The notes beneath the pieces are model-generated. The model ran no database searches. It saw nothing but the letters and a program-made list of their open reading frames with translations, and was not told the origin of the DNA. Made by a program: the position numbers and the translations under genes. A DNA stretch of 64,000 nucleotides from an uncultured Verrucomicrobiales bacterium (GTDB lineage Bacteria > Verrucomicrobiota > Verrucomicrobiia > JADLBR01): the NCBI GenBank assembly GCA_964651705.1, contig CAZYWZ010000015.1, positions 9,617 through 73,616 on the forward strand. Direction: 5' to 3'. Shown here piece after piece: positions 48,230 to 48,502 of this stretch; positions within the stretch are counted from its first letter, which is position 1; every line of letters starts with the position of its first letter.

Positions 48230-48502
48230 GGACTGCGGCGTGGCAGCGCCGCTTTGGATTACCCCAAACGGCCCGGTGCGCCCCCGCCGCCAGACTCTCT
48301 CCAACCCGGATTGTTCACGCGCAGCGTGAACGATCCGCACAGCGTGCCGACACGAAGTGTCAGGGTTAGCCCCGACAACCCCGTCACCATGCATCGGGCT
48401 TGTCGCCCCTTCGGGCGGATCGATCACAACAAAGCTCGTCATCGATCCGGGCCAACAGGGCCCGACGCACCGATCCAAAGCGGCGCTGCCACGCCGCAGT
48501 CC
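48230..48502. mobile_element. MITE-like non-autonomous element (family 2), 273 bp, with perfect 30-bp terminal inverted repeats
   Basis: GGACTGCGGCGTGGCAGCGCCGCTTTGGAT at 48230-48259 is the exact reverse complement of ATCCAAAGCGGCGCTGCCACGCCGCAGTCC at 48473-48502. It has no coding capacity and sits between cimA and jag. A degenerate copy lies at 15153. Confidence 0.6.

Follow-up and report, generated by a model that had tools for sequence, protein, structure and literature searches.

The window, a 64,000-nucleotide stretch of DNA from an uncultured Verrucomicrobiales bacterium, carries the element studied here, hereafter copy A, in a 449-bp spacer between an ORF encoding citramalate synthase (cimA; 46577-48160, + strand; HMGL-like, HCS_D2 and LeuA_dimer domains, named from relatives) and an ORF encoding a KH/R3H Jag-like protein (jag; 48610-49110, + strand). 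A repeat search of the window identified a perfect 31-nt inverted repeat within this spacer (48229-48259 and 48473-48503), with arms that are 100% complementary, 213 nt between them and a length of 275 bp end to end. The initial annotation had reported exact terminal inverted repeats (TIRs) at 48230-48259 and 48473-48502 around a non-coding core; the repeats are indeed exact and each is one base longer than reported (31 nt), and the ORFs that cross copy A have no protein-database matches, its 109-aa translation finding no match in a set of 5.8 billion proteins. The arm 25-mer GCGGCGTGGCAGCGCCGCTTTGGAT, with up to three mismatches allowed, occurs at three sites in the window (15158+, 48235+ and 48473-), compared with an expectation of 0.00 in 100 dinucleotide-preserving shuffles. 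Similarly, a covariance model built on the arm unit (R1; all filters disabled) recovers three arms, two in copy A and one in a second copy (copy B), at E values of ~1e-8 to 1e-9, and beyond these finds nothing in the window below E = 0.29.

As defined by homology, the whole element spans 48211-48541 (~331 bp), a long imperfect palindrome not assigned to either strand, over the full length of which the metagenomic homologue L030 (2208-2499) can be aligned; in short-word blastn, family matches to copy A start at 48212 or 48216 and end at 48515 or 48524. The left arm (48229-48259, +; TTTGGACT-GCGGCGT/GGCA/GCGCCGC-TTTGGAT; R1 score 51.8 bits) contains a local 7-bp hairpin at 48235-48252, and the right arm (48473-48503, -; 48.5 bits) is its exact reverse complement. 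Outside the arms lie two flank modules, GGAGGCGGCCCTACTTT on the left (48212-48228, +), which is conserved in the family and pairs imperfectly with 48504-48520, and CATCGGCCCTCCAATGGATCCAAGGTTTCCACAGGAAT on the right (48504-48541, +), which equals the family consensus ..CGGCCCTCCGATTGATCCGAAGTTTCCCCCTGAATGATG; in the consensus fold the outer helix between these modules is GG.GGCC / GGCC.CTCC. Inside the arms, the left block TACCCCAAACGGCCCGGTGCGCCCCCGCCGCCAGACTCTCTCCAA (48260-48304, +) is found in every member of the family, the single-arm copies and copy B among them, and the right block ACAGGGCCCGACGCACCG (48456-48472, +) is found in copy B and all two-armed members. The apex between these blocks (48305-48455, +) is variable and is built of nested hairpin modules (48307-48337, 48349-48361, 48416-48449 and others), none of which are present in the short forms of the family, with part of them in L004 and most in L030. 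Folded as RNA, 48225-48507 reaches -161.7 kcal/mol, with z = -12.8 for the + strand and z = -10.7 for the - strand.

Copy B (15149-15278, +) is a short-form member, located between an upstream gene for a multi-haem cytochrome c / CCP_MauG protein and a downstream gene for a DsbD_2 protein. Its left arm (15149-15182) is intact and scores 54.3 bits with R1, its inner blocks occupy 15183-15238, and its right arm (15241-15269) is degenerate and not recognizable as a unit by R1. Positions 15150-15219 are 84% identical to 48227-48296, and the block CAGGGCCCGACGC at 15226-15238 matches 48458-48470. By these measures, copy B is what the initial annotation took it to be, a decayed second copy that keeps its left TIR and internal blocks while its right TIR has eroded; domain annotation agrees equally with the flanking genes then named for both copies, cimA and jag for copy A, and cytochrome c and DsbD_2 for copy B. 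Directly adjoining copy B is a GTAG-type REP (15279-15303), a singlet that makes this spacer a mosaic of repeats.

Comparison with related genomes indicates that both spacers have changed quickly. At the cimA-jag site, the element is missing from the 94-bp spacer of three relatives with 85% identical cimA (L042-L044) and from the 136-bp spacer of another with 82% identical cimA (L046), and in two relatives (L039 and L040; 89%) a FecR-domain gene stands between cimA and jag. Another relative (L038; cimA 98% identical, 97% at the nucleotide level) diverges 7 nt past the cimA stop into a different repeat, ..CTCGCTAGTAGCGAAGGGCC, and its contig ends there. When the relatives L039-L046 were compared with the window by blastn, alignments stopped at ~48146-48151 and resumed at 48565-48570, and what L042-L044 and L046 have in common with the window in this spacer is limited to CCCGTTTGACATC..GGTTTGACA(A/G)AAT at 48565-48603. 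Within this segment ahead of jag (GTTTGACATC..GGTTTGACAGAAT), a consensus scan predicts a promoter composed of TTGACA, 16 nt and CAGAAT, with an upstream TG.

Across ~100 kb of relatives' DNA, R1 detected no unit except in L048, where DsbD_2 is 97% identical and copy B is present with the same degenerate right arm. Copy B is absent from L058 (86%), which has a 44-bp spacer and another upstream gene, and in L049, L050 and L059 a different repeat takes its place. The copy B region (15128-15360) is also a synteny break relative to L050 and L058: next to DsbD_2 on its upstream side, the window and the 97% relative carry the cytochrome c gene and the 77-86% relatives a STAS-domain gene, and repeats mark the junction. 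Since the two copies are absent from, or replaced in, the spacers of relatives, both are lineage-specific additions to spacers with fast turnover. Formally, transposition cannot be told apart here from a gain through recombination or from loss of the element in the relatives. An orthologous empty site had been named in advance as an observation that would argue against mobility; such a site was found. It shows, however, that the sequence was not there ancestrally, which favours insertion.

Searches beyond the window revealed a dispersed family. A scan of 185,579 representative genomes with the pattern GCGGCG-N4-AGCGCCGCTTTGGA alone yielded a 190-bp homologue (L004) and a short form (L025), both in one Verrucomicrobiia MAG, and a metagenome scan with the arm plus the inner block as the pattern yielded L028-L037. 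The family accordingly comprises the two loci of the window, two in the one Verrucomicrobiia MAG and approximately nine more in metagenome contigs. Its short forms measure ~120 nt arm to arm (L031 = L033, L032, L035, L036, L025 and copy B), its longer forms 182 nt (L004), 234 nt (L030) and 273 nt (copy A). Whatever exceeds the short form is always located at the apex, where small hairpin modules separate CTCCAAC from AGGGCCCGACG; in L032 one of these modules, GATCGATCAC..GTGATCGATCC, is placed outside the arms. A single arm together with the same inner block is present at three loci (L028, L029 = L037, and L034).

The borders of these members bear on the proposal, made in the initial annotation, that copy A is a MITE-like element mobilised in trans by an insertion sequence (IS) family. 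As a classic MITE, it would be an internally deleted IS whose 30-bp TIRs a DDE transposase binds in trans. A perfect 31-nt inverted repeat on a non-coding element of ~300 bp, present in more than one copy and missing at orthologous sites, is in keeping with this proposal, and the size, TIRs, non-coding and intergenic nature and foldability as RNA are all shared with bacterial MITEs such as Correia/NEMIS, RUP, ERIC and Nezha. Unlike in MITEs, however, homology among members does not end at the TIRs but extends past them (on the left into GGAGGCGGCCC.A(T)TTT, on the right into CATCGGCCCTCCGATTGATCCGAAGTTTCCCCCTGAATGATG), and L030 is collinear with the window throughout 48211-48541; the element therefore does not end at its inverted-repeat arms but reaches 18 nt further to the left and ~38 nt further to the right. 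No target-site duplication flanks copy A, nor does one abut the arms in any of eight two-armed members, and the sole recurrent direct repeat, CGGCCCT, belongs to the conserved flank modules. The single-arm copies are functional-looking half elements, another departure from MITEs, and no cognate IS was found in the window or among the loci of the genome scan, where no pair of arms lies at IS spacing (0.4-8 kb) around a gene.

The family behaves as a mosaic, its flank and hairpin modules changing place and orientation from one member to another. The flank modules of L004, for instance, are swapped relative to the interior, the right-flank module lying inverted on the other side, as would be expected if recombination between the inverted arms had flipped the interior. 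The idea that the element had inserted itself within a small GGAGGCGGCCCTCC hairpin and duplicated 7 bp (CGGCCCT) in doing so was considered and rejected, as the compared DNA contains no unoccupied site followed by the GATTGATCC module. The arms of one element resemble each other more than they resemble those of other elements: over a 30-nt core in eight verrucomicrobial elements, arms differ on average at 1.1 positions within an element versus 2.3 between elements (permutation p ~0.005 in this small sample, n = 8), and they are identical in four of the eight, even though loops differ between elements (TGGC, TGAC, TTGC). Such concerted arms fit selection for a long hairpin, conversion from arm to arm, or copying through a fold-back intermediate, and arms of one element that are kept alike are a pattern described for REPINs (PMC3116915).

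Each arm is itself a compact unit, a 7-bp GC hairpin within fixed flanks of the form TTTGGA(G/C)T-hairpin-TTTGGAT. Although the genome-scan pattern did not specify the 5' tag GGA(G/C)T, the tag is present in 19 of the 30 matches, usually after TTT, in 11 genomes from four GTDB phyla, namely three Acidobacteria MAGs, Verrucomicrobiia and Verrucomicrobiales MAGs, Kiritimatiellales, two Victivallales, Anaerolineae, Chloroflexia and one Rhodanobacteraceae. A looser search, with a filter requiring a stem, collected 37 distinct units consisting of (T)TTGGA(G/C)T, a stem of 6-8 bp around a loop of 3-6 nt, and TTTGG(A), and every one of them bears GGAGT or GGACT as its tag. The stems vary yet remain self-complementary, for example GCAGCGC/GCGCTGC (L025), GCGCTGT/GCAGCGC (L023), GCTCCGCC/GGCGGAGC (L014) and GCGCGGAC/GTCCGCGC (L054). 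In an alignment of 29 sequences, five of seven stem pairs have changes on both sides, a figure inflated by the filter that required a stem, which leaves the individual cases above unaffected.

These units exist as singlets and as inverted doublets, arranged head-to-head or tail-to-tail. Doublets were found in the window and in L001, L002, L004, L014, L015, L025, L030-36 and L052-56, and their consensus folds as a long hairpin; the inner gap is ~2 nt in L017 (head-to-head), ~15 nt in a phage contig, 36-55 nt in L015 and L001, and 213 nt in copy A. That the arms occur as hairpin units, alone or in doublets with inner gaps of a few to ~15 nt, again speaks against the MITE proposal, because doublets with such small gaps could not be IS remnants. 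So does the double change in L025, which preserves the local hairpin at the cost of arm-to-arm complementarity and thereby points to the small hairpin and its flanks as the conserved unit, rather than to a TIR bound by a transposase. We consider derivation of copy A from an IS improbable on these grounds, and what stands of the original proposal is a mobile-type, non-coding, dispersed palindrome for which insertion is favoured; the MITE class and the TIRs as boundaries are not supported.

The unit also extends to viruses. A scan of viral contigs located it in five stretches, and a 17-kb phage contig encoding capsid, portal and terminase proteins (IMGVR_UViG_3300047160_036239) contains three near-perfect inverted doublets of TTTGGAGT-hairpin-TTTGGAT, all intergenic (L055, 2775-2855 and 6046-6119; L056, 3711-3783). 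Phage of this kind are a possible vehicle for spread of the unit between lineages. In the literature that could be searched, the motif strings of the unit returned primer coincidences only, and they are absent from the text and supplements of Di Nocera et al. (PMC3733652). A 14-nt match between window positions 39506-39525 and L017 was judged compatible with chance. An Anaerolineae MAG (L007, 5900-6200) carries tandem arrays of related hairpins (AATGCGGCGCTGTAGCGCCGCTTTAG..., followed by CCAAAGCGGGGACGTGCCCCCGCAAG repeats), a cluster of similar stem-loops in which the 5' tag is AGAAT, not GGAGT.

Taken as a whole, the element is best read as a palindromic intergenic repeat of the REPIN/BIME type rather than an IS-derived MITE, a reading to which we assign a probability of roughly 60%. 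What is known of REP and REPIN biology comes almost entirely from Proteobacteria, with GTAG-tagged units and RAYTs. The 34-nt unit has the size and palindromy of a REP (20-40 nt, extragenic and repeated), with a stem of 6-8 bp and with all three arms of the window in intergenic DNA; its doublets, the long hairpin of their consensus and the concerted arms are those of a REPIN; and the mosaic of modules, with a GTAG REP adjoining copy B, is that of a BIME. The GTAG or CGTC found at the end of the stem-loop in the described REP superfamilies (PMC3733652) is missing, for which reason we file the element as REPIN-like, not as a REPIN. It also counts against the reading that only two loci are present in 64 kb and that the inner gap of 213 nt exceeds that of typical REPINs.

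Set beside the systems it most resembles, the element shares with REPINs short extragenic palindromic units, doublets that fold with their spacer as one long hairpin, coexisting singlets, arms that are alike within an element, and a non-coding, dispersed nature. It differs from them in that the GTAG head is lacking, no RAYT was found nearby, and the 213-nt gap of copy A includes nested hairpins, compared with ~60 nt in the short forms of the family; moreover, REPIN populations are described as lineage-specific, whereas the unit of the window is common to several phyla and phage. The GTAG/CGTC repeats and TIRYT TIR families of Di Nocera et al. (2013, PMC3733652) offer a similar comparison, as they too consist of a tagged stem-loop with a short conserved tail, pair up head-to-head or tail-to-tail across spacers of 1-100 bp, occur in the PVC superphylum and Chloroflexi, and coexist as several families in one genome, just as the window also has GTAG-tagged REPs; the window's unit differs in its tag, GGA(G/C)T, and its tail, TTTGGA(T). 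Enterobacterial BIMEs are likewise mosaics of palindromic units and short conserved modules in varied combinations and orientations, but their sequences are unrelated. Host-factor binding (IHF, gyrase, Pol I) is associated with BIMEs.

A mechanism can be proposed for the REPIN-like element. Its building block is a REP-like stem-loop of ~34 nt, consisting of TTTGGA(G/C)T, a GC stem of 6-7 bp, a loop of 4-6 nt and TTTGGAT, which in the verrucomicrobial family is set within ~65 nt of conserved flank. Two such units, inverted tail-to-tail, create a palindrome capable of forming a long hairpin, and in copy A further small hairpin modules have enlarged the apex to the present 213 nt between the arms. 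We suggest that the element is, or used to be, propagated as non-autonomous DNA by way of a single-stranded hairpin, with a trans-acting enzyme that would read the invariant flanks plus any stable stem. Our best guess for this enzyme is a RAYT-like HUH/Y1 transposase, as HUH/Y1 enzymes treat REPs and the ends of IS200/IS605 elements in this way (PMC3116915, PMC3733652); a DDE transposase acting on the TIRs fits the data worse and is less likely. No RAYT/Y1 transposase was found in the window or in ~60 fetched loci, on a search of six-frame ORFs of at least 60 aa with HUH and Y-motif regular expressions and with phmmer using E. coli RayT (best E = 1.5), a search that covered the window and these loci. 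The earlier statement that the window has no transposase thus holds for HUH motifs and RayT-like ORFs, the kinds that were checked.

Where it now lies, past the cimA stop and ahead of the conserved jag promoter, the element is probably tolerated, and it may serve there as a putative terminator or insulator, a role suggested by the GC hairpin of the left arm and the TTTGGATT tail behind it. A stronger version would hold that the element is primarily a bidirectional intrinsic terminator or an mRNA-stabilising 3' hairpin selected in place, with the likeness elsewhere reflecting convergence or a shared host factor. Both left arms, one 26 and one 70 nt past the stop codon of a + strand gene, do score as terminator-like in a consensus scan that places sites at 48235-48252 and 15158-15175 (tail TTTGGATT, with 5 T of 8; 0.4-0.6 sites expected by chance); tail-to-tail doublets read as a hairpin followed by TTTGGAT on each strand, and the doublets of the phage contig lie between structural genes. 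The U-tract (TTTGGATT), however, is short, members also lie between divergent genes (L004, L028 and L030), and near-identity over ~34-65 nt across unrelated loci and phyla would be unexpected for terminators that evolved independently. We regard this origin as quite unlikely. Terminator function is compatible with the REPIN-like reading as a secondary role, not as an alternative origin, and it is plausible that copy A passively terminates transcription or insulates the jag promoter from cimA.

Less probable still is that the element encodes a structured RNA, either non-coding or cis-regulatory, that would fold as a long hairpin or four-way junction and be transcribed together with cimA or upstream of jag. 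The very stable fold (z = -12.8) is what such an RNA would have, arms co-vary within elements, the stems of the small hairpins show double changes, and the fixed flanks could close a four-way junction, in which TTTGGAGT/ACTCCAAA would be the outer pairing and TTTGGAT/ATCCAAA the inner one. Against this, the two strands fold almost equally well, members sit in tandem, divergent and convergent gene contexts in either orientation (by a heuristic ORF call), L004 and L030 have a degraded version of the inner hairpin at 48307-48337 with no compensating changes, and the element is missing from the orthologous spacers of close relatives. Rfam likewise has no match at the element, whether at the gathering score (the whole window and 20 related loci) or at relaxed E values (the locus at E up to 10, six loci at E up to 1); a match to DUF3800-VI scored 18.4 bits, where the cutoff is 35 (E = 0.48), and was attributed to chance. 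The element is probably not an RNA gene. Several other classes were considered from sequence alone and dropped: integron attC sites (no RYYYAAC/GTTRRRY boxes), a retron msr/msd (no reverse transcriptase gene seen beside the element, where neighbours are partly annotated), Acido-Lenti-1 RNA (overlapping taxa, but no Rfam match) and uptake sequences.

For the window itself, copy A matters little. It is carried as a passenger in the intergenic DNA that separates the cimA stop from the jag promoter, and it helps to explain why the assemblies of close relatives break here. More generally, repeats mark synteny breaks and rapid intergenic turnover in this lineage, which makes them useful for MAG assembly and strain typing. 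The modest wider point is a differently tagged unit whose flanks stay constant across several phyla of soil and anaerobic bacteria and in a phage, and the recurrence of this tagged hairpin is the sole feature that might surprise specialists. The unit could help to find the enzyme or host factor that recognizes it and to test whether phage ferry repeats between lineages. A bolder and tentative proposal, one we hold to be unlikely though not remote, is that TTTGGA(G/C)T-hairpin-TTTGGA represents a third, undescribed superfamily of tagged stem-loops beside GTAG and CGTC, common to Acidobacteriota, Chloroflexota, Verrucomicrobiota (including Lentisphaeria and Kiritimatiellia), some Proteobacteria and phages. 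If so, fixed flanks around a variable stem would mean that one conserved protein reads the unit, either an unrecognized mobilising enzyme of the HUH or another type, possibly phage-borne, or a conserved host factor, and the verrucomicrobial element of the window would be one elaborated derivative.

The window contains other repeats besides these. A second, unrelated composite family of ~130 nt is found at 13046-13178, 18459-18676 and 40761-40882, with a partial copy at 8659-8726, and combines an inverted GTAG-tagged pair (GTAGCGAAG...CTTCGCTAC) with a CCCCGGTGGTGCCCCGCGTGCGGGGCAC hairpin; elsewhere it follows the cimA stop in L038, lies upstream of DsbD_2 in L049, L050 and L059, and is present in a metagenome contig (L029, 1061-1209). 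Classical GTAG-headed REPs (GTAGCCCATC.GGTCAC.G.TGGGC) are located at 3151-3243, 15279-15303 and 18733-18757, as one inverted doublet and two singlets. The verrucomicrobium Opitutus terrae has been reported to be rich in REPs (PMC3733652), and the REPs and composite family of the window match that report. A unit of ~220 bp at 39501-39722 has inverted ends of 20-24 nt (CCCCGATCCTCGCGTAAGGC / GCCTTACGCGAGGATTTGGG) and GC-rich internal hairpins, with no Rfam match. Lastly, a 38-nt repeat, AATT.CAGACGTAGCCACGGC..GGCC..GGACCC, stands beside composite repeats at 18685-18722 and 40895-40932 (87% identical) and resembles another GTAG-tagged stem-loop.
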